A DNA stretch of 64,000 nt from a bacterium (GTDB lineage Bacteria > SZUA-182 > DTGQ01), in assembly GCA_040752695.1 (NCBI GenBank), contig JBFMGO010000004.1:13904-77903 (forward strand), in the 5' to 3' direction. Every line of letters begins with the position of its first letter. Positions within the stretch are counted from its first letter, which is position 1. Under the pieces are notes generated by a model that was not told the origin of the DNA, did not search any database, and worked only from the letters and a program-made list of their open reading frames with translations. Positions 13,661 to 43,170 of this stretch are shown here, in pieces. The position numbers were made by a program, and so were the translations under genes.

Positions 13661-14080
13661 ATGTTTAAAAAATTATTGCTTTTAGCTGCTGCCTGCTGCA
13701 TCCTTGTTTCTTCCTGTGCTCCCGTTACCAGCAGTAATGTCGGAGGAGGACAGGCGCTGCCGCAAGGGGGAGGGGATTATGCCTTCAGCAATTTTGTCCT
13801 GATCAATAACAAAGCCCTCTTGCGGGACTTGCAGATTACGGACATACGGCAAAAGATGGTCAATGACCTGATGCAGGTGCAGGTGCAGGTCCTGAATAAA
13901 ACCAGCAGGACTTTTTCCATCCAGTACTCTTTCAGTTGGTTTGATGCCTCCGGGTTTCAGGTTGTAGGTGTAGGTGAGCACTGGATACCTGCGGTAATGA
14001 ATGGAAACGAAGTCAAAAGTCTGAACGGGGTAGCGCCGACTCCCGAAGCCACTCAGTTCAAGATTCAAATTCGAAAGTAA
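13661..14080 (+). CDS. ycfL: YcfL-like (DUF1425) periplasmic lipoprotein
   Basis: The start is set at ATG 13661 after AAAGGAGG. It has a signal peptide with lipobox LVSSC and the YSFSWFDASGFQV motif characteristic of YcfL. It lies directly upstream of lpoB, as in E. coli. Confidence 0.75.
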   Translation: MFKKLLLLAAACCILVSSCAPVTSSNVGGGQALPQGGGDYAFSNFVLINNKALLRDLQITDIRQKMVNDLMQVQVQVLNKTSRTFSIQYSFSWFDASGFQVVGVGEHWIPAVMNGNEVKSLNGVAPTPEATQFKIQIRK

Positions 14081-28741: not shown

Positions 28742-28774
28742 AACCCGGCATAACCCTTGAAAACAGAGGAAAGT

Positions 28775-29473
28775 ATGGTTTTTGGAACAAACATCCTTGA
28801 TATCGTCGTTGTCGTCACTCTTCTCTTTTTTACCATTCACAGTTTCTTTAAAGGAACTATCCACGAAATCTTTTCTCTTCTCGCTCTGGTGCTGGGGCTC
28901 TTCCTGGCCCAGCGGTTTTACCATCAGACAGCTCAGGCTTTCGAGAAAATAGGGGGCAATTCCAAGGCTGGCATTTTTGTAGCCTTTATCCTTCTCTTTT
29001 TCGTTGTCTACCTGATCGTTATTCTTCTTGGAAAGCTCTTGAAAAAAATTATCAAAACCGCTCAGTTAAGCTGGATGGACCACCTGGGGGGAGCATTTAT
29101 CGGTATGATCAAAGGGATACTTCTGCTCTGTATGCTTGTAGCAGTCCTGGTCATGGTTCTCCCTTCTGAAAGTCAATTGATTCGAACTTCGCGGCTTGCT
29201 CCGCTTCTCTACCAGACGAGCTCTGTGCTTTTGCAAGCCGTTCCTCCGGCTATCAAGAAAAAATTCCGTGAAAAGATCGAGGAGCTTGAAACCTTGCGAA
29301 AAAGAAGGCCCGCACCCCACAAGGCTCCCCAAAGGCATACCCCTGGGAAGAGAGGAACGCCTTCCATAGAATTTTCTTTTGATACATTATCTTTTCTCAC
29401 TCCTGTCAGTTCTGTCACTTCCGTCATTTCCCTCACTAAAAAGCCTTTGCTGCTGAGGGCTTCGAACCCGTGA
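28775..29473 (+). CDS. cvpA: CvpA (colicin V production) family membrane protein with a long basic C-terminal tail
   Basis: N-terminus NILDIVVVVTLLFFTIHSFFKGTIHEIFSLLALVLGLFLAQRF and 4 TM helices. The start is set at ATG 28775 after GAGGAAAG; the track start is TTG 28757. The 3' end overlaps rnhB convergently. Confidence 0.75.
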   Translation: MVFGTNILDIVVVVTLLFFTIHSFFKGTIHEIFSLLALVLGLFLAQRFYHQTAQAFEKIGGNSKAGIFVAFILLFFVVYLIVILLGKLLKKIIKTAQLSWMDHLGGAFIGMIKGILLLCMLVAVLVMVLPSESQLIRTSRLAPLLYQTSSVLLQAVPPAIKKKFREKIEELETLRKRRPAPHKAPQRHTPGKRGTPSIEFSFDTLSFLTPVSSVTSVISLTKKPLLLRASNP

Positions 29474-30076
29474 TATAGTAGACCATTTGGTGCGGATAAT
29501 TGGGGGAAGCGGCTTATGCGCTGCAAGGCACTGCCGGGCAAAATGAATGGTCTTAGGGTCCGATGGATACCCTGATCCAAAATCGCCATACATCTTTCGC
29601 AAAGCATGGATCTCACGGTCCCTCACTACCTTGGCCACGATAGAGGCTGCCGCAACTACTGCATAGTTCTGATCAGCCTTGTTCTCTCCCCTGATTTCAA
29701 TATGCTCTTTACCAACCAGCCACCTGACCGCCTGGCAATATTTCTGAATTCCTCCTCCTCTGGCCGGGACATCCAGGTAGATACAATCAGGGTCGAGCAG
29801 GTTGATCAGTTCAGCGGATTTTTTCTTACTCAAGACATTCAGATTTTCCTGATCTATCTCCTGCGGGCAAACCAGTATCACCTGCACTGAAAGAGCTGTT
29901 TTATGGATCAACTCGTACAGATATTCACGCTTTGAAGGCGTGAGCCATTTGGAATCTTTTACCCCGATCGACCAAAGTTCCTCCTCCCTTCTCTTTTCTA
30001 TCATCACTCCACAAAGAGCCATCGGTCCAATCAGACATCCCCTCCCTGCCTCATCAATGCCGGCAATGAGATGCAT
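29387..30076 (-). CDS. rnhB: Ribonuclease HII
   Basis: 229 aa with the catalytic N-terminus IAGIDEAGRGCLIGPM, plus DSKWLTPSKRE and ASIVAKVVRD. Confidence 0.92.
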   Translation of the reverse strand: MHLIAGIDEAGRGCLIGPMALCGVMIEKRREEELWSIGVKDSKWLTPSKREYLYELIHKTALSVQVILVCPQEIDQENLNVLSKKKSAELINLLDPDCIYLDVPARGGGIQKYCQAVRWLVGKEHIEIRGENKADQNYAVVAAASIVAKVVRDREIHALRKMYGDFGSGYPSDPKTIHFARQCLAAHKPLPPIIRTKWSTISRVRSPQQQRLFSEGNDGSDRTDRSEKR

Positions 30077-30369
30077 GGTTTATTATCCTCATACATTTAA
30101 AGTACGTCTTGGGATTGAGAAAATACACAATCCCTTTGCTCCTCAGTCTGGTGAATAACCTGGAGATAGATGTGATCTTATCGTATATCTTACCTGATCT
30201 TTTGAACATTAACAATGGATAAAAGGATAATGTGGTCAACTGCTGCAATCCAAAGCATCGGATAAGAGTGTAAAACATATCCTTCTTCACCCCCTGCCGT
30301 CTTTCAATCGATTACTATAAAAAATATATTTCTTCTAAAAATTATATATATATTTTTATCTATATTTAT

Positions 30370-30399
30370 TTGACAAATTGAATATCAATATTTTATAAT
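30370..30399 (+). promoter_or_regulatory. Near-consensus sigma-70 promoter (TTGACA-N18-TATAAT), copy A of a module repeated at 35371
   Basis: TTGACAAATTGAATATCAATATTTTATAATT: 28 of 31 positions are identical to 35371-35401. It is embedded in a ~100-bp A/T-only tract, about 270 nt upstream of the 30670 start. Confidence 0.6.
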
Positions 30400-30669
30400 T
30401 AAATATAGTTATATATATTTAAAATTAAACGATTCTTACTGCTTTATTGAAAGAGGATATCTATATTCTAACCAATAAATACTATGATTATGAACAAATT
30501 AATTTTAAAATTTTTTTTGAAAATTTATCGTTTTTTATGCTCTTACCAAATAAGAGCCGGCGAGAATTTTATAGAGTTAAAAAATGCACGAATGAATAAG
30601 AAGATCTTTCGTATGGCTTGTGTGTAGCTTATTTTTTTATAAACTTTAATTGTAAAAAGGAGTAATCCC

Positions 30670-31740
30670 ATGAAAAAGTTATTCTTCTCCGCTTTGCGTT
30701 TAATTTTTGGAATAGTTTTAGTTTTTGGAATAGTTTCAGTATGTGGAGTATCAATATCCTATGCTGAATTGAATGGATTTTGCCTAGAAGACAATTCAGG
30801 GCAGTTGAATGTAGGAAGTACTCAAGGGAAAATGGGGCAGGAGGTTCAGATTCCTGTGACTGTTCAAAGGATACCCAACGGAATCTCTTCATTTCGTTTT
30901 AAAATTATTTATGATTCATCTGTCCTGGAATATTCAGGCTTTGAGCAGGGAGATTTAGTAACCTCTCTGGATCAGCTTAACGTCTTTGCTGTCAGTACTG
31001 ACAGGCTCCAGATTGAAGGGACAGGAACGGACATTTCACAGGGAGCAACAGGGAATCTGGTGGTATTGAAATTTATCGTCATTGGTGGAAATATATCTGA
31101 AAATAACGGATGTTATCCATTACAACTGGAAAACCTGCTGGGTGATACAACTGATTTATCCACAACAGGAGGGTGCTTCTGTATCAGTCCCTGTAATGGA
31201 GATCTTAATAGCGACGGGGAAATTACCCCATCCGATGCTCTTATTGTCTTTGTGTGTCAGGTTGGATCCAGACCTTGTTCTGATTGTACTGACATAGACC
31301 GGGATGGTATCGTTACGCTCAAGGACGCACTTTGTATCTTCCAAAAGTATCTGGGGCAGCCTTCCTGTTTGGATCGGAGTTCTCCTGAAAATGAAATACC
31401 TCTATGGCTGACCGAACTCATCGATGAATTAAAAAACTCACCGGTCGCGAATCCACCAGCTCAAATAATTCAATACGAATATCTTAATACTACCGTTTAC
31501 TACTTACCTCCGAAGTGTTGCGATATCCCAAGTAATTTATATGGCATCAATGGAAATATCATCTGTCATCCTGATGGAGGATTTACCGGCAGAGGGGATG
31601 GAGGATGTCCAGATTTTTTTACAGAATCAAAGAATGGGATTACCATATGGAAAGATGAAAGAAATTATCCTGTATCGAATAATCCTCAGGTACCCTCTTT
31701 TCGGGGATTTCCTTTGAATCGCACTATGAGGACCCCATAG
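30670..31740 (+). CDS. Secreted cohesin-plus-dockerin protein with a C-terminal 4-Cys domain of unknown function
   Basis: 356 aa with a signal peptide. Cohesin-like: GQEVQIPVTVQRIPNGISSFRFKIIYDSSVLEY...GNLVVLKFIV. Two dockerin EF-hand-like repeats: NGDLNSDGEITPSDALIVF and DIDRDGIVTLKDALCIF. C-terminus: PVANPPAQIIQYEYLNTTVYYLPPKCCDIPSNLYGINGNIICHPDGGFTGRGDGGCPDF. AAAAGGAG lies upstream of the ATG. Confidence 0.8.
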   Translation: MKKLFFSALRLIFGIVLVFGIVSVCGVSISYAELNGFCLEDNSGQLNVGSTQGKMGQEVQIPVTVQRIPNGISSFRFKIIYDSSVLEYSGFEQGDLVTSLDQLNVFAVSTDRLQIEGTGTDISQGATGNLVVLKFIVIGGNISENNGCYPLQLENLLGDTTDLSTTGGCFCISPCNGDLNSDGEITPSDALIVFVCQVGSRPCSDCTDIDRDGIVTLKDALCIFQKYLGQPSCLDRSSPENEIPLWLTELIDELKNSPVANPPAQIIQYEYLNTTVYYLPPKCCDIPSNLYGINGNIICHPDGGFTGRGDGGCPDFFTESKNGITIWKDERNYPVSNNPQVPSFRGFPLNRTMRTP

Positions 31741-31846
31741 TTTCAATAAAGCACCTGATTCCTGATCATTTCAGCGATCCGTCCTGTTTTACGGAAAGGG
31801 GGTGCAAAAAAGATCGCGGTCTTTTGAGAATTCTTTTTACAGGGTA

Positions 31847-31877
31847 GTAACTAATTGAATATAGGCTTATTTTATCA
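31847..31877 (+). promoter_or_regulatory. Degenerate third copy of the island promoter box (core AATTGAATAT conserved) upstream of the protease gene
   Basis: GTAACTAATTGAATATAGGCTTATTTTATCAG against TTGACAAATTGAATATCAATATTTTATAATT. The 10-bp core is identical but the -35/-10 hexamers are poor. Confidence 0.25.
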
Positions 31878-31997
31878 GTCAGTCTTCCCTTTTTCTCATG
31901 ATTATCAATCTTGTCAGCGTCTATGCTGGAAATCTTATCTGGAAATCTACGGAATACTTTTCAAAATAAATTATTATGTATATCAGGAGGCTAAAAA

Positions 31998-34900
31998 ATG
32001 AAAAAATTAGAAATATCCAGGATTATCTGTATAATAATAGTAATATTATTTGCTTTACTCGATAGTGCGACTGCAATGGGTGGAGAATATTCAAATTCAA
32101 CTTTAAAAAGCATCTATGTTCGCAACCTTACACAGGAATATAGTGGATCGGATGTAGCTCCGCAAACAATAAGGGCTTTTGAGAATTTAATGGAGGAAAA
32201 AGGATTAGAATTTACCATCGAAGGAGAAAAAATAACAGGATTCGATATAAGGCAAATTTCCGGTGTAGATGAGACAGGTCAAAAACATATTCGTATGGGT
32301 CAGACATATAGAGGGTTGCCCGTTATCGGCGGGGAACTGATTGCCCATATCAAAAACCACAATGTCATTCACCAGGTTAACGGTAAATATCTCCCACTCC
32401 TTACTATCTGTGTAGAACCTTCTATCGATGCAGATACTGCACTACAAACTGGGCTTGATGAGTTGCACGGAAGGCCCAGCCTGCGTATTACCAAAGCCCC
32501 CTCTCTTGTAATCTTTGAATCCCGGTTAGCGTATCATTTTGTAATTTCGCATGAGGGTTCACAACCGGGACAATGGTGGTACTATGTCGATGCTCATACT
32601 GGTGAGCTTATTCTTCGCTACAACAATATCCAGCGCTGTGAACCATCTAGAAACGGTTCTCATACTGCTTTGGCTGGCAGTCGCCTTACAGGAGAGGGTG
32701 GCGATACGATAACGATAACTGGTTGGCGTGATAACAGCGGCGATTTTTATCTCGCCAACTTCAACGAGAAATGGGGTATTTTTGATGAAGACACCGACTG
32801 CTGGGTAAATAATGCAATATCGAATTGGGGCACATCGGATAGAGCGGCAGTCTCCGCTGCCGAAAACTTTGCGATGACTCAGAACTGGGTCACGAATGTA
32901 TTGGGAAGAAACAGTTTTGATAATGCCGGCACTATTGCGATGGCCATAATTCATCATGAAACAAATTGGTCCAATGCTATGTGGAATGGTCAATATTTTT
33001 ACTTTGGGGATGGAAATGGTGGAACATGCGGTCCCCTTACATCTCTGGATATTGTCGCTCACGAATACGGCCATGCTATAACCCAGTATACATCAAATCT
33101 CAGGTACTATGGTGAGTCAGGAGCGCTTAATGAATCCTATTCTGATATCTTAAGTGCAGCAGTAGAATTTGCCAGCCAACCAGATGGAAGAGGCAGTTAT
33201 CCAGACAGGATCGCCGGCTATTCTGATTGGCTTGAAGGCGAAGATGCTTTGTATGGTGGTATGAGAGATTTTCGAGACCCTCAGCGGTTTGGTCAGCCAT
33301 CATATTATGAAGGCGTTCATTGGCATGATGTTAATAACAGTTATGATAATGGCGGGGTCCACATCAACAGCGGAGTTCAGAATTTTGCATTCTACCTGCT
33401 TGCCGAAGGCGGGAGAGGAGTGAATGAAGGGCGTCAGTATGACATCAGGGGAATTGGGATTGACGATGCAGTTCGAGTTGCCATGCGTGCCAATATGGTA
33501 TACTTGACACACTTCGATGAGTATGCTGATGCACGAGAAGCCTGGCTCTCCGCGGCAACTGATCTCGGTCTTCCTGCTGCAACGATAAATGCTGTCTGGG
33601 ATGCCGTTGGTATTGGTGGTTTGAATACCTATTATCGGGATAATGACAGGGACGGATATGGAAACCCTTCAGATTCGGTCACAGCCAGTTCATGCCCTTT
33701 GGGATATGTTGAAAATAATACCGATTGTAACGACAGTGATCCTGCCGTTAATCCCGGCGCTTCTGAGATACCCTGTAATGGAAAAGACGATGATTGTGCA
33801 GGGGGCGATCTTTGCGAAGGAGGATGTAAAGATTCTATCTCTTTGGGTGAGAATAAAAATGGTTCATGGAAAGCCGATTGTTCTTCGAAGCACAGATCTG
33901 GCAGATATGCCTTCTATTATACCTTTACTTTAACCACAGATACTTCAGTGCGGATTGATTTAGAATCAAGTGTGGATACCTATCTTTATTTATTAAGCGG
34001 TAGCGAAAATGGTGGAATCGTAGCTCAAGATGATGACGGAGGAGAGAACTACAATTCGCGCATTACCATATCATTATCTGCCGGGACCTATGCAATCGAA
34101 GCCACTACTTTCTCAAGTAAAAGGACGGGTAATTTTACGCTGTCTTTCAATAATGATTGCGGCCCTGAAGTTTGCGATGGCCTTGACAATGATTGTGATG
34201 GCCAGATAGATGAGGGAGTGAAGAATACGTATTATCGAGATTCCGATAGTGACGGCTATGGATGTCCTGACAAGAGAATAGAGGCTTGCTCTGCTCCTTC
34301 CGGCTATGTTGCGAATTCTACCGACTGTAACGACAGTGATCCTGCCGTTAATCCCGGCGCTTCCGAAGTATGTGGTAATGAAACAGATGAGAATTGTGAC
34401 GGTATTAAGGCTGGTTGTGATAATATATCAAAATGTGTTTCTTTTATCTCTTTGGATGTGAGGCAAAAAGGTTCGTGGACGAGCCAATGCCCATCGAAAC
34501 ATAGAGCTGGCAGGTATGCTTCCTATTACACCTTTACTTTAGACACTAATACTTCCGTGCAGATTGATTTGGAATCAAGTGTGGATACCTATCTCTATTT
34601 ATTAAGCGGCAATGCTGGTAATGGTACAGTACTCAAATATGACGATGACGGAGGAGATAACTACAATTCGCGCATTATAACGACACTATCTGCCGGGACC
34701 TATACAATCGAAGCCACCACCTACTGTTCTGAAAAGACAGGCAATTTTACCTTATCTGTTCAGAGTGTGGATAATGGATCACAAGAGATTTCAACCGCTA
34801 ATACTTCAACTTATATTGGTGATGGCTGGTGGGACTGGACTGTCTTCATCGCAGCCCCCACGCAAGTACTCAACCAGATAGATTGCGTGGAATATACACT

Positions 34901-35066
34901 TCATCCGAGTTTTGATCCTCCTCAAGTTTCGGTATGCAACATCGGAGATCCAAGTTATCCCTTTGGTCTCAACGCCAATGGATGGGGAACCTTTTTGATT
35001 TACATTGAAATTACTTTCAAGGACGGGAGCTCTTGTAATTTGGAACATATGCTTGTCTTTGAATAG
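31998..35066 (+). CDS. Secreted thermolysin-family (M4) zinc metalloprotease: propeptide, catalytic domain, 2 x (Cys-rich MopE-like motif + PPC domain), C-terminal YEATS-like domain
   Basis: 1022 aa with a signal peptide. FTP/PepSY-like propeptide (MGQTYRGLPVIGGEL; WWYYVDAHTGELI). Zinc site HEYGH at nt 33060-33074 with GALNESYSD, and GGVHINSG. Cys-rich motifs YYRDxDxDGYG...CNDSDPAVNPGASE and CDGLDNDCDGQIDEG. PPC-like YYTFTL...VDTYLYLLSG...LSAGTYxIEATT...GNFTLS occurs twice. C-terminus: WWDWTVFI...VEYTLHPSFDPP...NGWGTFLIYIEITFKDG. Confidence 0.9.
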   Translation: MKKLEISRIICIIIVILFALLDSATAMGGEYSNSTLKSIYVRNLTQEYSGSDVAPQTIRAFENLMEEKGLEFTIEGEKITGFDIRQISGVDETGQKHIRMGQTYRGLPVIGGELIAHIKNHNVIHQVNGKYLPLLTICVEPSIDADTALQTGLDELHGRPSLRITKAPSLVIFESRLAYHFVISHEGSQPGQWWYYVDAHTGELILRYNNIQRCEPSRNGSHTALAGSRLTGEGGDTITITGWRDNSGDFYLANFNEKWGIFDEDTDCWVNNAISNWGTSDRAAVSAAENFAMTQNWVTNVLGRNSFDNAGTIAMAIIHHETNWSNAMWNGQYFYFGDGNGGTCGPLTSLDIVAHEYGHAITQYTSNLRYYGESGALNESYSDILSAAVEFASQPDGRGSYPDRIAGYSDWLEGEDALYGGMRDFRDPQRFGQPSYYEGVHWHDVNNSYDNGGVHINSGVQNFAFYLLAEGGRGVNEGRQYDIRGIGIDDAVRVAMRANMVYLTHFDEYADAREAWLSAATDLGLPAATINAVWDAVGIGGLNTYYRDNDRDGYGNPSDSVTASSCPLGYVENNTDCNDSDPAVNPGASEIPCNGKDDDCAGGDLCEGGCKDSISLGENKNGSWKADCSSKHRSGRYAFYYTFTLTTDTSVRIDLESSVDTYLYLLSGSENGGIVAQDDDGGENYNSRITISLSAGTYAIEATTFSSKRTGNFTLSFNNDCGPEVCDGLDNDCDGQIDEGVKNTYYRDSDSDGYGCPDKRIEACSAPSGYVANSTDCNDSDPAVNPGASEVCGNETDENCDGIKAGCDNISKCVSFISLDVRQKGSWTSQCPSKHRAGRYASYYTFTLDTNTSVQIDLESSVDTYLYLLSGNAGNGTVLKYDDDGGDNYNSRIITTLSAGTYTIEATTYCSEKTGNFTLSVQSVDNGSQEISTANTSTYIGDGWWDWTVFIAAPTQVLNQIDCVEYTLHPSFDPPQVSVCNIGDPSYPFGLNANGWGTFLIYIEITFKDGSSCNLEHMLVFE
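33624..34770 (+). repeat. In-frame tandem duplication (~600-bp unit, two copies) inside the protease gene
   Basis: 33721-33766 against 34321-34366: 44/46 nt identical at an exact 600-bp offset. The PPC core GAATCAAGTGTGGATACCTATCT recurs at 33963 and 34572 (609-bp offset, so small indels). The protein units are about 200 aa each. Confidence 0.9.
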
Positions 35067-35185
35067 ACCTAAACGGAAACACTTGAAGGTGTGTGTCATG
35101 TCATTTCGATAAGTACCATATTTGTATGACAGGCAGAAAAAAAGGCCATGGATTTACTATCCCATCAATTCTCCCATGAATATCA

Positions 35186-35219
35186 GGGGTCACAGATTAG
35201 ACTGTGACCCCTTTTTTTT
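35186..35219 (+). terminator. Rho-independent terminator after the protease gene
   Basis: 10-bp perfect stem GGGGTCACAG / CTGTGACCCC with a 6-nt loop, followed by 8 T (35212-35219), 120 nt after the stop. Confidence 0.85.
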
Positions 35220-35370
35220 ATGGAGATGACTTTGTGGGCGACTTTTTTTACACTCAGCCTGATAAGACATTCATTCGAGATGTTCTTTTCCGACGAGAAG
35301 AACAGAGGGTTTTCATGGATCAGACAATAGATCAATTATATATGTTTATTTAAAAATTTTTGCTATATAC

Positions 35371-35400
35371 TTGACAAATAGAATATCAATATATTATTAT
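35371..35400 (+). promoter_or_regulatory. Near-consensus sigma-70 promoter (TTGACA-N18-TATTAT), copy B of the island promoter module
   Basis: TTGACAAATAGAATATCAATATATTATTATT is 28/31 identical to 30370-30400. Flanking A/T tracts are similar, and it lies about 165 nt upstream of ATG 35567. Confidence 0.6.
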
Positions 35401-35566
35401 TTATATATATATTTATGTATAAATATTTTATAGATACAGACGAGAGCTCGATCGGTAAGCGGTATAAATTATACACCTTGCATGAATGACCTCTTTTCCA
35501 TTCAAGCTGAAGTCGGTACTCAGACAAAAACCCGTTTTAACCCTCAACGTGGGAAAAGGAGGACTC

Positions 35567-38026
35567 ATGCAATGTAAAAAGAGGATTGTAAAAGTACAAG
35601 GGCGTTTTATTGGAGGTATTAGTTTTACTAGAGGTATTAAGATAGTAATTCTCTTGATCATCCTTGGTCTTACCGCAAGAGCCGGGGCTGATGGAACAAA
35701 AAAGACTTCTCCACCGCCTTCGCCTTCATCGGACACGAAAAAGATGCTTGAGCAATTCTGGCTGGATGCCTATGGTAAGACATCGCCAGGCCCGGCATCC
35801 GAACCGGCCGTATCGTCCACGCGACCTACACCAGCAGCACCAGGTACGCAAGCCACGCATGCCACTCCAGCCATGCCTGGCATGCCTGCCGCACCACCCA
35901 TGCCAGATGGAAACAAGACAAAAACATCACCATCCCCGAAGCCGGGCAACCCGCTGATTCAATTACCCCCAAATGAACCTTTTGCCACCCTGAACAGGGA
36001 ACTTTTGGCTAAGGCCAAACCAGACGAGTGCTTTAACGGCATAGGAAATCCCTACCCTACCGGGCCCCCCTGCTCTGAAGGAAAACCCAAGGTGAACCAG
36101 GCTTATGTCTGGGGGCTGGCCAAGGTTGGCAGTAATATCTGGATTGGAACCGCTCCCAATGTACACTGCCTGGCCATTGGAGCCTATGGCCCTGCCGCCA
36201 TGGACCCTACGATCCCACTGAATCCTCTTGAGACTGACTCATGGGTTTGCGAATTTGGCAGTTCTCAGTACTCTCAAAACTATCCCTTTGTACCGCCTTC
36301 TGCCGGGGACTGGAGGCCACCTCATATCTATGTCTACAATACGGCACAAAAGACCTTGACCGAGAAAACACCCATAAGAGATCCAGCTTTTCTGCTTATG
36401 ACCGGCATCCGATCGGCTGGCAGCATCGGCGATCTGGTCATTATGGCTGGGCCTGGCACGGCAGGACCCAGTAACCAGGGAAGCATTACCCTCAGTGCTT
36501 TCCTTTCGGATTCGGGCACCTATCTGGGATCGAAAACTCTTTTCACCTATACCAATATCCGCAAGTGGCTGGTGGTAAACGATGTCCTTTACACAGCCGT
36601 ACGAAATGTCAGCGGTTCATCCAAGGGCAGTGTGCTGCGATGGACTGGCGAGTTGACCTACCTGCCATCGGGAAAGCCCGACTTGAACGCGCTCTTCAGA
36701 TTTTCGATTGTCGGGAACCTGTCAGATGGAGAGGGTGCCGAACTTGCCGAACACGAAGGCCGCATCTTTGTGACCACCTGGCCGGGCAACATGCTCGAGG
36801 GGGAGGAGATAACCACGGCCGGCCTCTATATGAGCCCGCCCATTCCAGCACAGGGGCTGACCAGCGATGATGCGGATAGCTGGACCAAGGTCTGGCAGGC
36901 GCAAGATTATGAACCTGACTTTGTGACGGCAGCCACCTATGGAGGCGGTGCCCTGGCCTCCTTTGACGGTTATCTCTACTGGGGGACCATGCATGTACCC
37001 TTCACCTCGGCGCTTGCGCATTTCATCATGTATGGAATGCCTGATAATGAAAGGGATATCCTGGCTGCGGTTTTGGGGACGTATCGCCCCATCAGCATTT
37101 TCAGAGGCCGGAATTTTGACTCAAGAAAGCCAGATTTGCAACTCGTTTACGGCATGCCCTGCCTGCCGGTATACATGCCACCAGGCCACTGGGAGATCCT
37201 GCCAAATAAAATGGGCGATCCACTCTGGGGCCTTTCCGGATTCGGTAATTTCTTCAATAATTATACCTGGACCATGTCGGTTTATCGGCATCAGCTTTTT
37301 ATCGGTACCATGGATTGGAGCTACTTTGTAGGAGAACAAATGAGCGCATTTCTCGATCTTACGATCGGCTCTATCCCTGATGAATTGCTCAATCTTCCTG
37401 AAAACTTCTATGGGGCAGATCTTTTCCGCATTCAATCCTCATATATTCCTGCCGTACCCGAATCTGTGGCCGGAGTTGGTAACTATACCAGCTACGGCAT
37501 CCGCACCATGCTGTCTGACGAAGCTCTTTACCTTGGCATGGCTAATCCGATGAACCTGCTCACGGATATGGATGATGACCTGCCGGAAGGAGGGTGGGAA
37601 TTGATCAGACTGAATAATGAGCTTCAGGTACCCATAGATATTATGCCGGGAACATGCCCGAACAGGCTCTCCGTGCTGAGTAGAAAACTTTTGGCTATTG
37701 CTCTTTCAGGCACACCTGATTTCGATGTAAGCCAGGTTGATACAGGCACGTTTATGCTTGGGAAAGATGCCACAGGGGCGAAGGTCACCCCTGTTCGCAG
37801 CATGTTCAGGGACGCAACTACACCCTTTGGAGAAGAACCATGCAGTTGTCATACCCTCGCCGGCGATAGGATTACAGATATTGTACTCTTTTTCGATCCA
37901 CAGGAAGTTATCATGACACTCGGATTAGGGATTGAGGATGACATACTTCTCACCCTGACCGGCAGGCTGAAGAAAGAGTACGGCGGCAAGGGAATTAAAG
38001 GACAGGACTGCCTGTCGATCGAATGA
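35567..38026 (+). CDS. Secreted/anchored 819-aa protein of unknown family: signal anchor, Pro/Ala/Thr-rich linker, putative beta-propeller, C-terminal beta-sandwich-like module
   Basis: The start is set at ATG 35567 (AAGGAGG 4 nt upstream); the track start is 35486. Hydrophobic segment IKIVILLIILGLTARAGA. Linker: PPPSPSS...PTPAAPGTQATHATPAMPGMPAAPPMP...SPSPKPGNP. A recurrent hydrophobic-x-aromatic-x-G-T motif appears in NIWIGT, VLYTAV, RIFVTT, YLYWGT, QLFIGT and ALYLGM. C-terminus: DIMPGTCPNRLSVLSRKLLAIALSGTPDFDVSQVD. Confidence 0.8.
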   Translation: MQCKKRIVKVQGRFIGGISFTRGIKIVILLIILGLTARAGADGTKKTSPPPSPSSDTKKMLEQFWLDAYGKTSPGPASEPAVSSTRPTPAAPGTQATHATPAMPGMPAAPPMPDGNKTKTSPSPKPGNPLIQLPPNEPFATLNRELLAKAKPDECFNGIGNPYPTGPPCSEGKPKVNQAYVWGLAKVGSNIWIGTAPNVHCLAIGAYGPAAMDPTIPLNPLETDSWVCEFGSSQYSQNYPFVPPSAGDWRPPHIYVYNTAQKTLTEKTPIRDPAFLLMTGIRSAGSIGDLVIMAGPGTAGPSNQGSITLSAFLSDSGTYLGSKTLFTYTNIRKWLVVNDVLYTAVRNVSGSSKGSVLRWTGELTYLPSGKPDLNALFRFSIVGNLSDGEGAELAEHEGRIFVTTWPGNMLEGEEITTAGLYMSPPIPAQGLTSDDADSWTKVWQAQDYEPDFVTAATYGGGALASFDGYLYWGTMHVPFTSALAHFIMYGMPDNERDILAAVLGTYRPISIFRGRNFDSRKPDLQLVYGMPCLPVYMPPGHWEILPNKMGDPLWGLSGFGNFFNNYTWTMSVYRHQLFIGTMDWSYFVGEQMSAFLDLTIGSIPDELLNLPENFYGADLFRIQSSYIPAVPESVAGVGNYTSYGIRTMLSDEALYLGMANPMNLLTDMDDDLPEGGWELIRLNNELQVPIDIMPGTCPNRLSVLSRKLLAIALSGTPDFDVSQVDTGTFMLGKDATGAKVTPVRSMFRDATTPFGEEPCSCHTLAGDRITDIVLFFDPQEVIMTLGLGIEDDILLTLTGRLKKEYGGKGIKGQDCLSIE

Positions 38027-38265
38027 GCAAGGTCATTTTTTATTGTATGACAGTGCCATTGAAAGACTTTTGCGTTGTCCCACGGATGGACCTGCCCCTC
38101 TTCAGGGAGGCCGGGCGGAAATAGGAAACAGGGTCACTATTTCCCATCTCCCTTTCAAGGGGCAGGATTCTTGAATATTCTATCGTCCGTGGTTAAAGTG
38201 GTCTTTTGCGGCACCGATCCAGCACGTGCTTATATCACTCCATTCCTTATAGCAGCCATAACTGC

Positions 38266-38327
38266 CTGGTCAGTTAGCGCCATATTTTGACGGAACCCAC
38301 ATGACTTGGCCGGTTCTAACTGACCAG
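38266..38327. repeat. 12-bp perfect inverted repeat (CTGGTCAGTTAG ... CTAACTGACCAG) with a 38-nt loop in a long non-coding spacer
   Basis: Arms at 38266-38277 and 38316-38327, read directly. No ORF with an SD spans it. Confidence 0.8.
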
Positions 38328-38707
38328 ACACGCTATGGCCTTTTAATCCTTTATCTCTATTTCAGTTATCCTTATTCGATATTAAAAGTATCGCTTCCGC
38401 CCATTCCAAAAAATATAAAACAAAAAAGAAAATACCCCTTAATTGGAAAACCAGAAAACTCATAGCATCCGGGCTGTTTATTTTTTCGAGTATTTATTGG
38501 AAATTGTATATTCATTATTTTATCTTTATTATACACTAAAACAAGTCAAGATGAAAGTAAAAATTTTATAAATATGGATTTTGTGTAATGCTCAAGTGAG
38601 CGATAACCAGAAGGATTTATTCCGTTTTGACCATGAAGATACTTCATGAGGATAGGAAGGGATGAAAAGATAAAAAAATGGAAAAGCGCGAAAGTGCGGG
38701 ATGGGAA

Positions 38708-38738
38708 ACGGCAAAAGGCGGGACAAGGGTATCCCGCC
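38708..38738 (-). terminator. Probable rho-independent terminator after nfnAB
   Basis: Minus strand reads GGCGGGA-tacccttg-TCCCGCC followed by TTTTGCCGTTT, about 80 nt downstream of the 38818 stop. Confidence 0.5.
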
Positions 38739-38817
38739 CGGTAAAAAAAGGCATAGGAAGAAACCTTCCGGTAAATCTGTTGAATAAGGCCAATGCATTG
38801 AAAGCAGAGCCAAGTAT

Positions 38818-41100
38818 TTACTGGCTCTTATTCTGCCCTTGCTCTTTGTTCAATAGATAGGCGTGGATGGCCTGGGCTGCCTTCTTGCCTGCGCCCATGG
38901 CTTTGATCACTGTGGCTGCGCCGGTTACAATATCGCCACCTGCGTAAATACCCGGCAAGTTTGTGGCCCCGGTCAATTCATCAGCGATAATGTTTCTTTT
39001 TTTATTCAAGGCAAGGTCCGTCATCGTGGAAGTGAGAAGGAGATTTGGTCCCTGGCCGATAGCCACGACAACAGCCTGAACATCAAGAATATATTCCGAA
39101 CCTGGAACAGGGACCGGCCTTCTTCGTCCGGACTGGTCCTCACCGGCCAGTTCCGTCCTTATGCACTCTATCCCTTTCACCCAGCCATTCCCATTGTCCA
39201 GAATACGGGTCGGATTGGAGAGAAGCCAAAACTCGATGCCTTCCTCTTTGGCATTTTCCACTTCTTCCCACCGGGCAGGAAGCTCCTTCATTGATCTTCG
39301 ATAGATAACGTACACTTTTTCCGCCCCAAGCCTCAAGGCAACCCGGGCTGAATCCATGGCCACATTTCCGCCTCCGATTACGGCAACCTCCGCCCCGATT
39401 CGGATTGGCGTGTCATAGTCAGGAAAAAGATATGCCTTCATCAGATTGGCTCTGGTCAGAAATTCATTGGCCGTGTAGACACCGTTAAGATTTTCACCAG
39501 GAATATTCATAAAAGAGGGGAGACCCGCTCCGGTGCCGATAAACACCGCATCGAATCCCTCCTGCCTGAGCTGATCAACCGTGATCAGCTTTCCTACGAC
39601 ATGGTTGGTCTTGACCTCAACACCCAATTCCCGGATGTAGTCGATTTCCCGCTGAACGATTGCCTTCGGGAGCCGGAACTCCGGAATCCCATAGATTAAA
39701 ACACCGCCTGCCTTATGAAGTGCCTCGAAGACCGTGACCTCATGGCCCATCCTGGCCAATTCGGAGGCGGCGGTTAACCCGGCGGGCCCTGAACCGATTA
39801 CAGCCACTTTTTTCCCGGTGCGGGGAATTGAATCATGATGCGCAAGCAGATTGCCCTGACAGTACTCGTAATCAGCCACGAACCGCTCCAGCCTTCCAAT
39901 GGCTATGGGCTGTCCTTTTTTGTTCAAGGTACACCGTGCTTCGCACTGGGACTCCTGAGGACAAACCCGGCCGCATATAGCCGGGAGGCTGTTTTTCTCC
40001 TTAATTTTCCTGATAGCGCCCGCGAAATCCTCCTTTTTGATAAGGCGAATGAAGGATGGAATATCAATATCCACCGGGCACCCCTCTACGCAGGGCTTAT
40101 TTTTACATTCCAGACAGCGAGATGCCTCCATGAGTGCCTGCTCCCTTTTGTAGCCCAAAGCAACGGGTTCAAAGTTCCGGATCCGCACTGCCGGATTCTG
40201 CATGGGCATGGGAACACGGGTCTTTGGCCTGTCCTCCTGATTGGCAGATTCTGCCCTCGCCTCCTTTTCCTGGCACTTGCAGGTGTAGTTCCACAGCGCC
40301 CGGTCTTCTTCACGTCGATACATGGAATGCCGTTTTAATAACTCATCAAAGTCCACCTTATGCCCATCGAATTCCGGCCCTTCCACGCAGGCGAAAAGAG
40401 TTCTGTTATCAACACTTACCCGGCAGGCACCACACATACCGGTAGCATCGACCATGATGGAATTTAAGCTTACGACGGTAGGAATATTCGCTCTCTTTGT
40501 CGCTTTGGCCACTTCCCGCATCATCACTACAGGGCCGATAGCCACCACAAGGTCGATCTTTTCCTTCCTGTCAATTAATTCCGCCAATAAATCAGTCACA
40601 AAGCCTTTGGTTCCATGGGAGCCGTCATCGGTGGCCACCATGAGACGATCAGAAATTGCCCTCATCTCATCTTCAAGAATCAGGGTATCCTTGTTCCTGG
40701 CACCGATAATGGAAATGACCCTGTTCCCGATTTCCTTCATGGCTTTGGCGATCGGCAGAACAGGAGCCACACCAACGCCGCCGCCAACGCAGACCACTGT
40801 GCCGGTTTTATAAATATGGGTAGGTTTCCCTAAGGGGCCTACCAGATCCATGATGGTGTCTCCCTGGCGGAGCAGGGCCAGTTTCCTGGTGGAAGCGCCT
40901 ACGATCTGAAAGATAACCGTGATCGTTCCCCGCTGCTCATCACGGTCCGCTATGGTCAGAGGGATCCTTTCTCCATATTCGTCCACCTTGATTACGACAA
41001 AATTCCCTGGTCGTGCGGATCTGGCCAATAGTGGATATTCGATTTCCAAAAGAATGATTGAGGAGGTCAGCATCCTCCTGGTAACGATTCTATAGCTCAT
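38818..41100 (-). CDS. Single-polypeptide NfnA-NfnB fusion (ferredoxin-NADP reductase-like subunit fused to a GltD-like FAD/Fe-S subunit)
   Basis: 760 aa. The N-terminal ~280 aa are PyrK/SudB-like (FVVIKVDEYGERIPLTIAD, VCVGGGVGVAP, 2Fe-2S MCGACRV). The C-terminal part is GltD/SudA-like (CLECKNKPCVEGCPV, CGRVCPQESQCEARC, VAVIGSGPAGLTAA, VAVIGGGNVAMDSA). Confidence 0.85.
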   Translation of the reverse strand: MSYRIVTRRMLTSSIILLEIEYPLLARSARPGNFVVIKVDEYGERIPLTIADRDEQRGTITVIFQIVGASTRKLALLRQGDTIMDLVGPLGKPTHIYKTGTVVCVGGGVGVAPVLPIAKAMKEIGNRVISIIGARNKDTLILEDEMRAISDRLMVATDDGSHGTKGFVTDLLAELIDRKEKIDLVVAIGPVVMMREVAKATKRANIPTVVSLNSIMVDATGMCGACRVSVDNRTLFACVEGPEFDGHKVDFDELLKRHSMYRREEDRALWNYTCKCQEKEARAESANQEDRPKTRVPMPMQNPAVRIRNFEPVALGYKREQALMEASRCLECKNKPCVEGCPVDIDIPSFIRLIKKEDFAGAIRKIKEKNSLPAICGRVCPQESQCEARCTLNKKGQPIAIGRLERFVADYEYCQGNLLAHHDSIPRTGKKVAVIGSGPAGLTAASELARMGHEVTVFEALHKAGGVLIYGIPEFRLPKAIVQREIDYIRELGVEVKTNHVVGKLITVDQLRQEGFDAVFIGTGAGLPSFMNIPGENLNGVYTANEFLTRANLMKAYLFPDYDTPIRIGAEVAVIGGGNVAMDSARVALRLGAEKVYVIYRRSMKELPARWEEVENAKEEGIEFWLLSNPTRILDNGNGWVKGIECIRTELAGEDQSGRRRPVPVPGSEYILDVQAVVVAIGQGPNLLLTSTMTDLALNKKRNIIADELTGATNLPGIYAGGDIVTGAATVIKAMGAGKKAAQAIHAYLLNKEQGQNKSQ

Positions 41101-41253: not shown

Positions 41254-43170
41254 TTACGAAACTTGATTGTAGTCGACGATAATGTTGTTCTCTTTCTTTA
41301 CTCTTTCAATCCATGCCTGGAAGAGCTGCTGTTCTTTATTGTAAAGAATCTGATCGCGTATCTTACTCTCTTCCTCTGCGAATTTCTTAAGATCCACTCC
41401 GACCCGCTTTCGCAAGACCGAAAGACAATATCCATGGCCGATCTTCAGGGCAGGAGTGATACCTCCCTCTGAAAGGCCGAAAAGAGCAGTGGCTAATTCC
41501 TGGCTTGAGCCTAATCCCTTAATGAATCCGTAGTGTGAAATTTCGCCGGTATCGGTTACCGTCACTTGATATTCCTGAGCGAGAGAGGCCAGATCAGCTT
41601 TCGTATCCTGTAATTTGCTGCGCATTTCTTCGGCCAATACCCTGGCCTTTTCCTCGGCTTTTTCTTTTTTCAGGTCCTGGATCACTTTTTCCCTGACCCT
41701 ATCCAGCTCAGGAACCCTGGGTGGAATCTCTTCGGCCAGGCGTAAGATATAAAATCCCTCATTTGCCCGAATCGGAGTGCTTGCATCATCTTTCTTGAGT
41801 TTGAAAGCAGCTTTGACAAATTCTTCGGATTTCCCGACATTGGGAATGGTTTTGGCATCTTCGGCCAGTTCGGTATCCCCGATCGCATATCCCTCTTTTA
41901 CGGCTGTCTCTTCCAGTTGTCCTGTTTTGTAGAAATCGCGGACCATATTATAGGCTACACTTTCGGCTGCTTCCCAGGATTTTTCAATGAGAAGTTGATC
42001 TACGATTTGCTGCCTCACTTCCTCAAGCGGTTTGGTTCGGGCTTCCTGGATGTCCTCCACCTTGATGATATGGTAGCCGAACGGCGTTTCGACGAGTTCA
42101 CTGATTGCACCTTTTTCCAGAGCGAAAGCTGCCTTTTCGAAATTCGGAGTCATGCGGCCCTTTCCAAAGAATCCTAGATCACCACCCTTGGATGCGCTGC
42201 CGGGGTCTTGTGAAAACTCGGTGGCCAGCTTGGCGAAATCCTCCCCGCCTCTGATTCTTTGCAGCAGGTCTTGAGCCTTCTTTTTGGCCTCCTCTTTCTT
42301 GGCATCGTCAGCCGCTGGATCGGTTTTCACGAGAATGTGCCTGGCATGGACCTGCTTGGGGATCTGATACTGTGTCTCGTGGCCATTGTAGTATCTTTTT
42401 ACTGCATCGTCGCCAACCGTCAGCGATTCTTTCACTTTCTGACGATCCACATAGATGAACCTCACCTTGCGTTGTGCGGGGAGCTTATAGTTTTCTTTAT
42501 TTTTCTCGAAATAGGCATTGGTTTCATCATCGGAAACTGCAACCTGAGAAAGGTATGAAGCCGGAGTAAAGAGCACATAATCTGCCTGCACTTTTTCATT
42601 CTGCTGAGAGTAAGTATCAAAAACCTCCTCGTTCGATACCTTGATGCCGGCCCTGATTCTCTCCTGCAGCCGATCGATGAAAAGACTCCTTTTTATTTGA
42701 TTCTCGAAGGAAGCAGGGTCGGTATGCATTCCGTATTCTAAAACCTGAGCATATACCCGTCCGTCAAAATGTCCGTTCTGCTGAAAGGCCGGCATGCTCT
42801 GGATCTTATCCAGAACATCCTTATCGCTGACCTTGATTCCCTGCAAGATAGCCTGATGAACCAGGATTTGACGATTGACGAGATTATCGAGAGCAGCTTT
42901 TTTGAGCTGCATTCTCTCAGCCATCTCCGGTGACCAATTGTTTTTGAACTGGTTCTGATAATATTCATAGAGTTGGCGATATTCGGTAGAGTATTCGAGG
43001 TGAGTAATATCTTTGCCGAAGACCGAAGCGATGACTCTCCCTTTGTCCTGGTGCTTCTCATCTCCTACTCCCCAGACAAGGAAGATGGTACCGATGAAAG
43101 CCAGGACGATGAGCGAAATAATTGCCTTTACTAAAAATGATTTTACATTTTTTCGCATGAGATTAAGCAT
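41254..43170 (-). CDS. ppiD: Periplasmic chaperone / peptidyl-prolyl isomerase PpiD
   Basis: 638 aa with an N-terminal membrane anchor KAIISLIVLAFIGTIFLVW, a SurA-N-like region, and parvulin domain HARHILVK...GGDLGFFGKGRMTPNFEKAAF...FGYHIIKV. Confidence 0.88.
   Translation of the reverse strand: MLNLMRKNVKSFLVKAIISLIVLAFIGTIFLVWGVGDEKHQDKGRVIASVFGKDITHLEYSTEYRQLYEYYQNQFKNNWSPEMAERMQLKKAALDNLVNRQILVHQAILQGIKVSDKDVLDKIQSMPAFQQNGHFDGRVYAQVLEYGMHTDPASFENQIKRSLFIDRLQERIRAGIKVSNEEVFDTYSQQNEKVQADYVLFTPASYLSQVAVSDDETNAYFEKNKENYKLPAQRKVRFIYVDRQKVKESLTVGDDAVKRYYNGHETQYQIPKQVHARHILVKTDPAADDAKKEEAKKKAQDLLQRIRGGEDFAKLATEFSQDPGSASKGGDLGFFGKGRMTPNFEKAAFALEKGAISELVETPFGYHIIKVEDIQEARTKPLEEVRQQIVDQLLIEKSWEAAESVAYNMVRDFYKTGQLEETAVKEGYAIGDTELAEDAKTIPNVGKSEEFVKAAFKLKKDDASTPIRANEGFYILRLAEEIPPRVPELDRVREKVIQDLKKEKAEEKARVLAEEMRSKLQDTKADLASLAQEYQVTVTDTGEISHYGFIKGLGSSQELATALFGLSEGGITPALKIGHGYCLSVLRKRVGVDLKKFAEEESKIRDQILYNKEQQLFQAWIERVKKENNIIVDYNQVS

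Follow-up and report, generated by a model that had tools for sequence, protein, structure and literature searches.

The question raised by this locus is whether three neighbouring genes for secreted-looking proteins form one extracellular system, or whether they have different histories and only came to lie side by side. The genes are found in a stretch of 64,000 nucleotides, hereafter called the window (positions 13,904 to 77,903 of contig JBFMGO010000004.1, assembly GCA_040752695.1, from a bacterium of the lineage SZUA-182; DTGQ01). They occupy the plus strand between two minus-strand genes, rnhB on the left (29387-30076) and a gene for a fused NfnA/NfnB-like oxidoreductase, nfnAB, on the right (38818-41100). 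This block contains gene 1 (30670-31740), gene 2 (31998-35066) and gene 3 (35567-38026), and no further sizeable open reading frame (ORF) was found in it. A sequence-only reading of the region had proposed that the three genes encode an undescribed extracellular system. The explanation that we favour, and that we hold to be probable, is a different one: gene 3 is a resident of the locus, and genes 1 and 2 belong to an accessory insertion of about 5 kb, located behind a duplicate of the gene 3 promoter at a variable spot.

Composition and conservation of the rnhB-nfnAB junction

The junction was compared with the corresponding loci of related genomes (designated by L numbers). In the closest relatives, L003 and L053, whose rnhB, ppiD and MreB are 88%, 77% and 98% identical to those of the window, the gene order is collinear with the window and reads znuACB, cvpA, rnhB, gene 3 orthologue, nfnB remnant, ppiD and mreBCD; neither locus has genes 1 and 2. 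What remains of nfnAB in these two loci is its last ~164 codons, next to gene 3 (L003 8205-8678; L053 4575-5063). In L001/L002 (GCA_040755755.1), rnhB adjoins gene 3, which is followed by different genes. The rnhB genes of L054 and L001 are 87% and 77% identical to that of the window. In L054, the nfnAB stop codon is found about 60 bp from the rnhB start (L054 1-1200), so that nfnAB, 85% identical to the window copy, directly abuts rnhB. This junction is an empty site.

In other relatives (L056 and L063-L065), rnhB and nfnAB are found in other contexts. Upstream of rnhB, the homology between the window and L003 or L054 stops at the ATG start codon. The rnhB-nfnAB junction is a variable, rearrangement-prone hotspot. 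Among the relatives compared, genes 1 and 2 are present in the window genome only, and they are absent from two rnhB clades. The proposal of an undescribed three-gene system did not withstand this comparison, as gene 3 stands alone beside rnhB in L003/L053 and in L001/L002, and the site is empty in L054.

The base composition distinguishes the same two genes. The GC content at third codon positions (GC3) was 0.542 ± 0.039 for 43 backbone genes. With values of 0.347 and 0.374, genes 1 and 2 are situated below this backbone (z = -5.0 and -4.3, respectively), whereas gene 3, with 0.540, equals it. Furthermore, the GC3 of the gene 3 orthologues fits their own hosts (L003, 0.552; L001, whose GC is higher, 0.621). 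By composition, then, gene 3 is native, while genes 1 and 2 are foreign. The lower GC of genes 1 and 2, which the sequence-only reading had noted by eye, was confirmed by this profile. The description of the spacers as unusually long and almost pure A/T was overstated: their GC contents are 27%, 35%, 35% and 41%, and further long AT-rich spacers are present elsewhere in the window.

The association of the three families was then considered on a larger scale. A scan of the GTDB species representatives for gene 3 homologues gave 46 loci from many phyla, which together with the four close relatives make 50 loci. Within the flanks retrieved, a gene coding for a gene 1-like cohesin-dockerin protein or for an M4 protease was found near the gene 3 homologue in none of the 50. 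No recurrent neighbours of the gene 3 family were detected, apart from a lineage-specific synteny in genomes of the Actinoplanes type and generic histidine kinases. The gene 1 paralogue P0130 (GCA_040755755.1) is located beside a NosD-like β-helix gene near ftsZ, away from gene 3 and from any M4 gene. As to gene 2, no full-length homologue was found. The co-occurrence of the three families, which the sequence-only reading had named as a test of the common system and whose lack it had named as a refutation, was not observed at these loci. A phage origin and a defence role were rejected as well, since neither gene 1 nor gene 2 had viral relatives and PADLOC gave no match.

The promoter repeat and the probable transcription units

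Two copies of a promoter segment are present in the block, both on the plus strand. The first repeat, R1 (30342-30425), contains the promoter P1, with a -35 hexamer TTGACA (30370-30375), a spacer of 18 nucleotides and a -10 hexamer TATAAT (30394-30399). The second, R2 (35346-35424), contains the gene 3 promoter P3, with TTGACA (35371-35376) and TATTAT (35395-35400). The sequence TTGACAAATTGAATATCAATATTTTATAAT at 30370-30399 recurs at 35371-35400 with three mismatches, i.e. 27 identical positions out of 30; no further match to it was found in the 64 kb and none in shuffled sequences. P1 and P3 are also the two best matches to the sigma-70 consensus in the region (12/12 and 11/12 positions, respectively, with the 18-nucleotide spacing). 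Two of the three mismatches fall in the 18-nucleotide stretch between the hexamers, most of which is identical in both copies. When R1 and R2 were aligned locally, a score of 72 was obtained, with a mean of 23 and a maximum of 36 for shuffled sequences. The promoter module common to genes 1 and 3, already seen in the sequence-only reading, is therefore real, and it extends to about 84 bp.

Homologous promoters precede the gene 3 orthologues in L003, L001 and L052, and P3 is the ancestral gene 3 promoter. By hand count, P1 or P3 shares 23-24 of 30 positions with the orthologous L003 promoter (23/30 for P1). P1 and P3 are thus closer to each other than to the L003 promoter, as would be expected for a duplication within the lineage of the window.

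The similarity of the two units does not extend into their leaders. The gene 3 leader (35401-35566, plus strand) is conserved in sequence in four genomes (alignments A2 and A4), the counterparts of the window segment being L003 5512-5669, L001 925-1105 and L052 186-375. Conserved blocks include TTTCCATTCAGGCTGCA, GTCCAGGAG and TTTTAACCCTC, followed by AAGGAG. A structured leader or riboswitch was considered and rejected: no Rfam match was obtained, a conserved structure received neither thermodynamic nor covariation support (z = -1.1; covariation term +0.31), and the leader is kept in sequence only. It could be a protein-binding site or a site of translational control. The gene 1 leader (30400-30669, plus strand), AT-rich and about 265 nucleotides long, is unrelated to it; no structure signal (z = -0.41) and no Rfam match were found for it, nor any homology in the window or in the related loci.

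The alignment of the leaders also settled the start of gene 3. An ATG at 35486 was rejected, as it lies inside the conserved untranslated leader in the alignment with three orthologues. The start at 35567, preceded by an AAGGAGG ribosome-binding site, agrees with the orthologue alignment and gives a protein of 819 amino acids, which matches the database protein P0001.

The spacer between genes 1 and 2 (31741-31997) contains no convincing promoter or terminator, and gene 2 is followed by a strong intrinsic terminator on the plus strand (35185-35212; an 11-bp stem with 7 GC pairs, then T8). Because of these two features, genes 1 and 2 would be co-transcribed from P1. A degenerate third copy of the promoter had been proposed upstream of gene 2; its local alignment scores (25-28) are those of shuffled sequences. 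Similarly, the 10-mer AATTGAATAT shared with the region upstream of gene 2 occurs twice in the window for 0.47 occurrences expected, and 11 of 100 shuffles reach two occurrences, so that this copy is at chance level. The promoters of other cohesin-dockerin genes (L004, L005 and L062) have only generic AT-rich consensus features in common.

To the left of R1, the spacer up to rnhB (30077-30341) belongs to the DNA that the relatives lack. Searched with blastn and tblastx against the window and 68 related loci, it remained without a match, and it could not be aligned with the 79-bp spacer that separates rnhB from the promoter in L003. A decayed 5' fragment of rnhB upstream of P3, hinted at by a MAFFT alignment, was discarded because its local alignment scores equalled those of shuffled sequences; such a fragment would have implied a long duplication of rnhB, spacer and promoter.

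Origin of the locus and alternative explanations

The following course of events would account for the locus. Gene 3 would be a long-term resident, provided with its own near-consensus sigma-70 promoter and its conserved leader. Later, a lower-GC segment of about 5.3 kb (from 30077 to about 35345) would have been inserted between rnhB and the gene 3 promoter. This insert would carry one transcription unit, made up of gene 1, gene 2 and the strong terminator, and it would be bracketed by direct copies of the ~84-bp gene 3 promoter segment, with P1 driving genes 1 and 2. The promoter was presumably duplicated by recombination at the promoter segment, or by copying of this segment, during or after the insertion. 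Neither a recombinase gene nor a short target duplication is present, and the spacers have no homologue in the window or in the 68 related loci. We infer from the same comparisons that the direction of the event was a gain and not a loss. Co-regulation of genes 1 and 3 at the level of initiation, which had been suggested before, is plausible in view of their homologous promoters, and both units would probably be initiated by the same RNA polymerase and receive the same regulator input.

The locus resembles hotspot insertions with promoter duplication or capture in its foreign segment, its variable site, its direct repeats and its host-type promoter. It differs from them by the lack of a recombinase, a tRNA gene and a short target duplication, and by a repeat which is an 84-bp promoter. 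These differences weigh against an insertion, for whose mechanism neither an integrase or transposase nor a tRNA or a short target duplication gives a sign, and the flanking repeat far exceeds the normal length of a target-site duplication. Several other points weigh in the same direction. A search of ~5.8 billion proteins gave neither a donor nor a close homologue for gene 1 or for gene 2, so that the acquisition rests on composition and on absence from the relatives; the related loci compared were five or six only, all from metagenomes. In addition, the gene 3 orthologues of the window, L003, L001 and L052 are 69-75% identical in all pairs, in a star-like pattern, whereas rnhB from the same genomes gives a clade at 87-90% plus a group at 76-79%; gene 3 may evolve fast or may be exchanged, rather than being strictly vertical. 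Finally, the didomain of the gene 1 type is fused elsewhere to gene 2-like M4 proteases and some gene 3 relatives carry Dockerin_1 (P0041, P0043 and P0062), so that some functional link between the three families is possible.

The main alternative, which we consider improbable, is an ancestral presence of genes 1 and 2, followed by their loss from the relatives through recombination between the promoter repeats. The direct repeats bracket the segment exactly and a deletion would recreate the arrangement of L003. However, the GC3 of genes 1 and 2 is 4-5 standard deviations under the backbone, while gene 3 is ameliorated in every host. The two genes are missing from relatives in two rnhB clades and have no close homologue in the protein collection searched, and a simple deletion between repeats would leave the novel spacer 30077-30341 unexplained. 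A single dedicated apparatus for capture and proteolysis, co-regulated and assembled through the cohesin and dockerin of gene 1, appears quite improbable, since gene 3 occurs alone in relatives, one relative has an empty site and no co-occurrence was found at the 50 loci. Gene 3 is moreover native in composition and genes 1-2 are foreign; by Pfam, genes 2 and 3 have neither cohesin nor dockerin, and the locus has just one cohesin and lacks both a scaffoldin and an anchor domain. These observations have to be set against the promoter module common to genes 1 and 3, the secreted appearance of all three products, the M4 proteases close to gene 2 that bear a gene 1-type didomain, and the few gene 3 family members with Dockerin_1.

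An origin of all 8.7 kb as a prophage or mobile genomic island now stripped of its mobility genes is also very unlikely. The variability of the locus, the synteny breakpoint, the low GC of genes 1-2 and the unexplained spacers of 265 and 791 bp would fit such an origin, but there is no integrase, transposase or tRNA and the sole flanking repeat is the 84-bp promoter copy. Genes 1-2 have no viral relatives, PADLOC gave no match, and gene 3 is compositionally native and syntenic. As for the resemblance between P1 and P3, it is hardly credible that two strong consensus promoters in an AT-rich setting came to look alike by convergence or by chance. Both are indeed near the sigma-70 consensus, AT-rich spacers yield many short chance matches, and secreted-protein genes in related metagenomes (L005) have promoters of the TTGACAAA type behind an A/T tract. 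Nevertheless, the 18-nucleotide stretch free of consensus is mostly identical in P1 and P3, and the similarity covers 84 bp, with a score twice the shuffle maximum and two matches in 64 kb where shuffles gave none. An insertion behind a duplicated gene 3 promoter is thus the explanation that we retain as probable.

The encoded proteins and the flanking genes

The domain assignments of the sequence-only reading were supported by Pfam for genes 1 and 2, and by an AlphaFold2 (AF2) model for gene 3. The signal sequences assigned to the three plus-strand genes were also retrieved on inspection: their N-termini resemble Sec signal peptides, the AF2 models of gene 1 and gene 3 start with a helix, and the three proteins would be secreted.

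Behind its signal peptide, the gene 1 product contains a Cys-rich cohesin-dockerin didomain (amino acids 36-235) and a DUF6970 domain (amino acids 253-329). The Pfam Cohesin family was matched with an E value of 1.5e-11, and Dockerin_1 with 22.0 bits, just under the cut-off of 22.9. The dockerin has two Ca-binding F-hand repeats, DLNSDGEITPSD and DIDRDGIVTLKD, and matches a PDB dockerin (2y3n_B, E 0.002); gene 1 also matches a PDB cohesin by sequence. In the AF2 model (predicted local distance difference test, pLDDT, 82), Foldseek found type I cohesins with template modelling (TM) scores of 0.73-0.75, the non-cellulosomal cohesin of Archaeoglobus fulgidus (2xdh) being among the top matches. 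An alignment of the didomain family (A5; 30775-31374 in the window) revealed a unit of ~200 amino acids with about 8 conserved Cys and a KYLGxPSCLD end. Elsewhere (P0122-P0131, P0138, P0154 and P0171), this unit forms the extreme C-terminus of otherwise unrelated secreted proteins, with M4, peptidase M36, ThuA, PQQ propeller, HYR, MopE or DUF4159 as cargos. Gene 1 differs from the family in that the unit is N-terminal and is followed by DUF6970. To judge from its distribution, the didomain behaves like a portable C-terminal tag.

The didomain of gene 1 would likely pair, cohesin to dockerin, either with itself or with proteins of the organism that carry the same kind of didomain. Two didomain-tagged proteins were observed in one metagenome (3300056620), on separate contigs. 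The genomic context of DUF6970 proteins gave no functional hint. Two M4 proteases, 51-53% identical to the M4 domain of gene 2, end in a didomain of the gene 1 type (35-37% identity to gene 1 over this region, E about 1e-26). This fusion is the sole evidence linking the gene 1 and gene 2 families, and it hints at a link without demonstrating one. Directly 3' of the paralogue P0130, a low-GC block of three genes was noticed (L004 9771-14485), which codes for two hypothetical proteins and a KaiC/RecA-like double ATPase; with a GC3 of 0.41-0.46 versus ~0.62 in its neighbours, it is probably another acquired segment.

Non-cellulosomal cohesin/dockerin proteins with variable partner domains are known from what PMC9012536 relays of Peer et al. 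(2009). Gene 1 is similar to them, with one type I-like cohesin, a canonical two-repeat Ca-binding dockerin, varying partner domains, an organism that shows no sign of cellulolysis, and no multi-cohesin scaffoldin in the part of the genome covered; it differs by its single conserved Cys-rich unit of ~200 amino acids that joins cohesin and dockerin. The same pairing modules occur in clostridial cellulosomes. The locus departs from these by the absence of a multi-cohesin scaffoldin, of dockerins on the neighbouring enzymes, and of carbohydrate-binding modules, SLH domains, a sortase anchor or glycoside hydrolases.

Gene 2 codes for a signal peptide, an FTP/PepSY propeptide, an M4 peptidase (amino acids 254-539), two MopE+PPC units and a C-terminal pYEATS domain (amino acids 945-1019). 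In Pfam, FTP (6e-10), Peptidase_M4 (2e-22) and M4_C (2.8e-33) were matched, together with three MopE motifs and two PPC domains; the PepSY match (8.7e-4) is below its cut-off. The M4 motifs are intact, with HEYGH, NESYSD including the downstream Glu (HEYGH...E kept) and GGVHINSG with the catalytic His, and the protein aligns with thermolysin (PDB 5a3y) with an E value of 1.7e-45. The product is thus likely a secreted pre-pro-metalloprotease of the thermolysin type, acting as an extracellular zinc endopeptidase, whose PPC, MopE and YEATS modules would presumably bind the substrate or a surface. It shares with the M4 pre-pro-proteases (thermolysin, vibriolysin/MCP-02 and pseudolysin) the propeptide, the catalytic domains and motifs and the C-terminal PPC; it differs from them by the tandem MopE+PPC and the terminal pYEATS.

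The MopE+PPC units are encoded by an internal tandem duplication of ~600 bp (33696-34145 versus 34296-34757), whose copies are 75-81% identical in nucleotides and 63% in protein sequence. The MopE part of this duplication and the MopE region of P0130 (L004 8697-8933) share 62% identity, which suggests a shuffling of modules within a pool of secreted proteins. The M4 half of gene 2 is 44-56% identical to many proteases.

The C-terminus of gene 2 (34830-35054) was matched above the Pfam thresholds, both by pYEATS (69.6 bits, cut-off 26.9) and by YEATS (50.5 bits, cut-off 22). It aligns with AF9 and YEATS2 (E 4e-5), and the HxSF and GWGxF pocket motifs are kept. LHPSF of gene 2 corresponds to L55-H56-E57-S58-F59 of AF9, and GWGTF to G77-Y78-A79-G80-F81; YEATS2 has GWGEF. 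The equivalent of AF9 F28 was aligned ambiguously. Compared with the YEATS readers (AF9, ENL and YEATS2) and with pYEATS (PF20305), the domain is similar in its scores and in the alignment of the two motifs; it differs in that it belongs to a secreted protease, whereas theirs are found on proteins of the chromatin or the cytoplasm. A pYEATS domain is carried by none of the 120 best gene 2 homologues. Bacterial YEATS readers were listed as an open question in a 2021 review (PMC8556138), and the term prokaryotic YEATS was not found in our literature search.

A wider idea can be formulated from genes 1 and 2, which we regard as doubtful. The didomain, with both halves on each protein, would be a self-assembly tag that builds scaffold-free extracellular chains in several uncultured lineages. 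Gene 1 would then be a DUF6970 adaptor that might recruit the protease, and the protease would be targeted by its YEATS domain reading an acyl-amide mark.

In the AF2 model of gene 3 (pLDDT 82), a signal or transmembrane helix and a short helix are followed by a disordered Pro-rich linker (amino acids 72-134), a multi-bladed β-propeller core (amino acids ~140-690) and a C-terminal β-sandwich (amino acids 691-819). No match was found in Pfam or NCBIfam, nor in the PDB, either by sequence or with a profile of 30 sequences. Foldseek gave generic propellers only, with TM scores of 0.2-0.55 and 6-13% identity. The succession of propeller and β-sandwich is shared with seven-bladed propellers (PL24/PL25 ulvan lyases, Kelch and the integrin alpha head); the resemblance is one of fold class only, given the lack of a PDB match.

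The core (35984-37636 in the window) defines a family of 971 clusters at 50% identity with E≤1e-3, 542 of them at E≤1e-30. Identities of ~50-60% are found across Chloroflexota, Actinomycetota, Bacteroidota, Myxococcota, Verrucomicrobiota and others, with many invariant Trp, Gly, Asp, Asn and Arg positions, and the relatives are often fused to type IX secretion system (T9SS), FlgD-Ig, SdrD-B or dockerin tails. The core looks like an undescribed family of secreted β-propellers. The gene 3 protein probably acts independently, on an extracellular polymer that it would either process as an enzyme or bind specifically.

The flanks of the block were assigned as proposed, rnhB, nfnAB and ppiD all being minus-strand genes identified by Pfam. 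RnhB (RNase HII) matches RNase_HII with an E value of 1.7e-41. The nfnAB fusion is one ORF of 760 amino acids, with NAD_binding_1 and DHODB_Fe-S_bind in its N-terminal part and Fer4_20 and Pyr_redox_2 in its C-terminal part. An identical fusion arrangement, of 761 amino acids, is carried by L063-L065. In a third group of relatives, nfnAB is followed by genes for a phosphodiesterase, an APS kinase and an ATP sulfurylase. PpiD is encoded further to the right (41254-43170). On the left, cvpA (28757-29473, plus strand) and rnhB are convergent ORFs that have 87 bp in common at their 3' ends (29387-29473), an overlap also present in L055 and L058. At L003 4290-4660, a DUF433/DUF5615 toxin-antitoxin-like pair, absent from the window, lies between cvpA and rnhB.

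Gene 3 is separated from nfnAB by 791 bp of non-coding DNA (38027-38817), versus only ~105 bp in L003. In this spacer, no ORF of at least 80 amino acids, no homology in the 68 related loci and no significant Rfam match were found. It contains an inverted repeat (38091-38109/38148-38166) and, at its right end, a terminator-like site of nfnAB on the minus strand (~38700-38770), located by the promoter/terminator scan and by the sequence. Repeats or remnants of mobile elements were looked for in the spacers, with no match in the window or the 68 loci. The statement that mobility genes are lacking holds, as neither integrase nor transposase ORFs were found in the block and no tRNA in the window. 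The Rfam scan gave no family at the gathering score, and with the threshold relaxed to E≤1 the region still had no meaningful match; PADLOC gave zero matches.

Taken as a whole, the locus reflects ordinary genome dynamics, and its novelty is that of single protein families and architectures rather than of a system. It offers a clean natural case of an acquired unit that would stand behind a duplicate of its neighbour's promoter, which is a simple route for wiring foreign genes into host regulation. Two ideas at the protein level emerge from it, the didomain as a portable C-terminal tag and the presence of a YEATS domain on a secreted protease. The latter touches the question whether bacteria have acyl-lysine readers. 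The gene 3 family, for its part, is a good target for family definition and for biochemistry.

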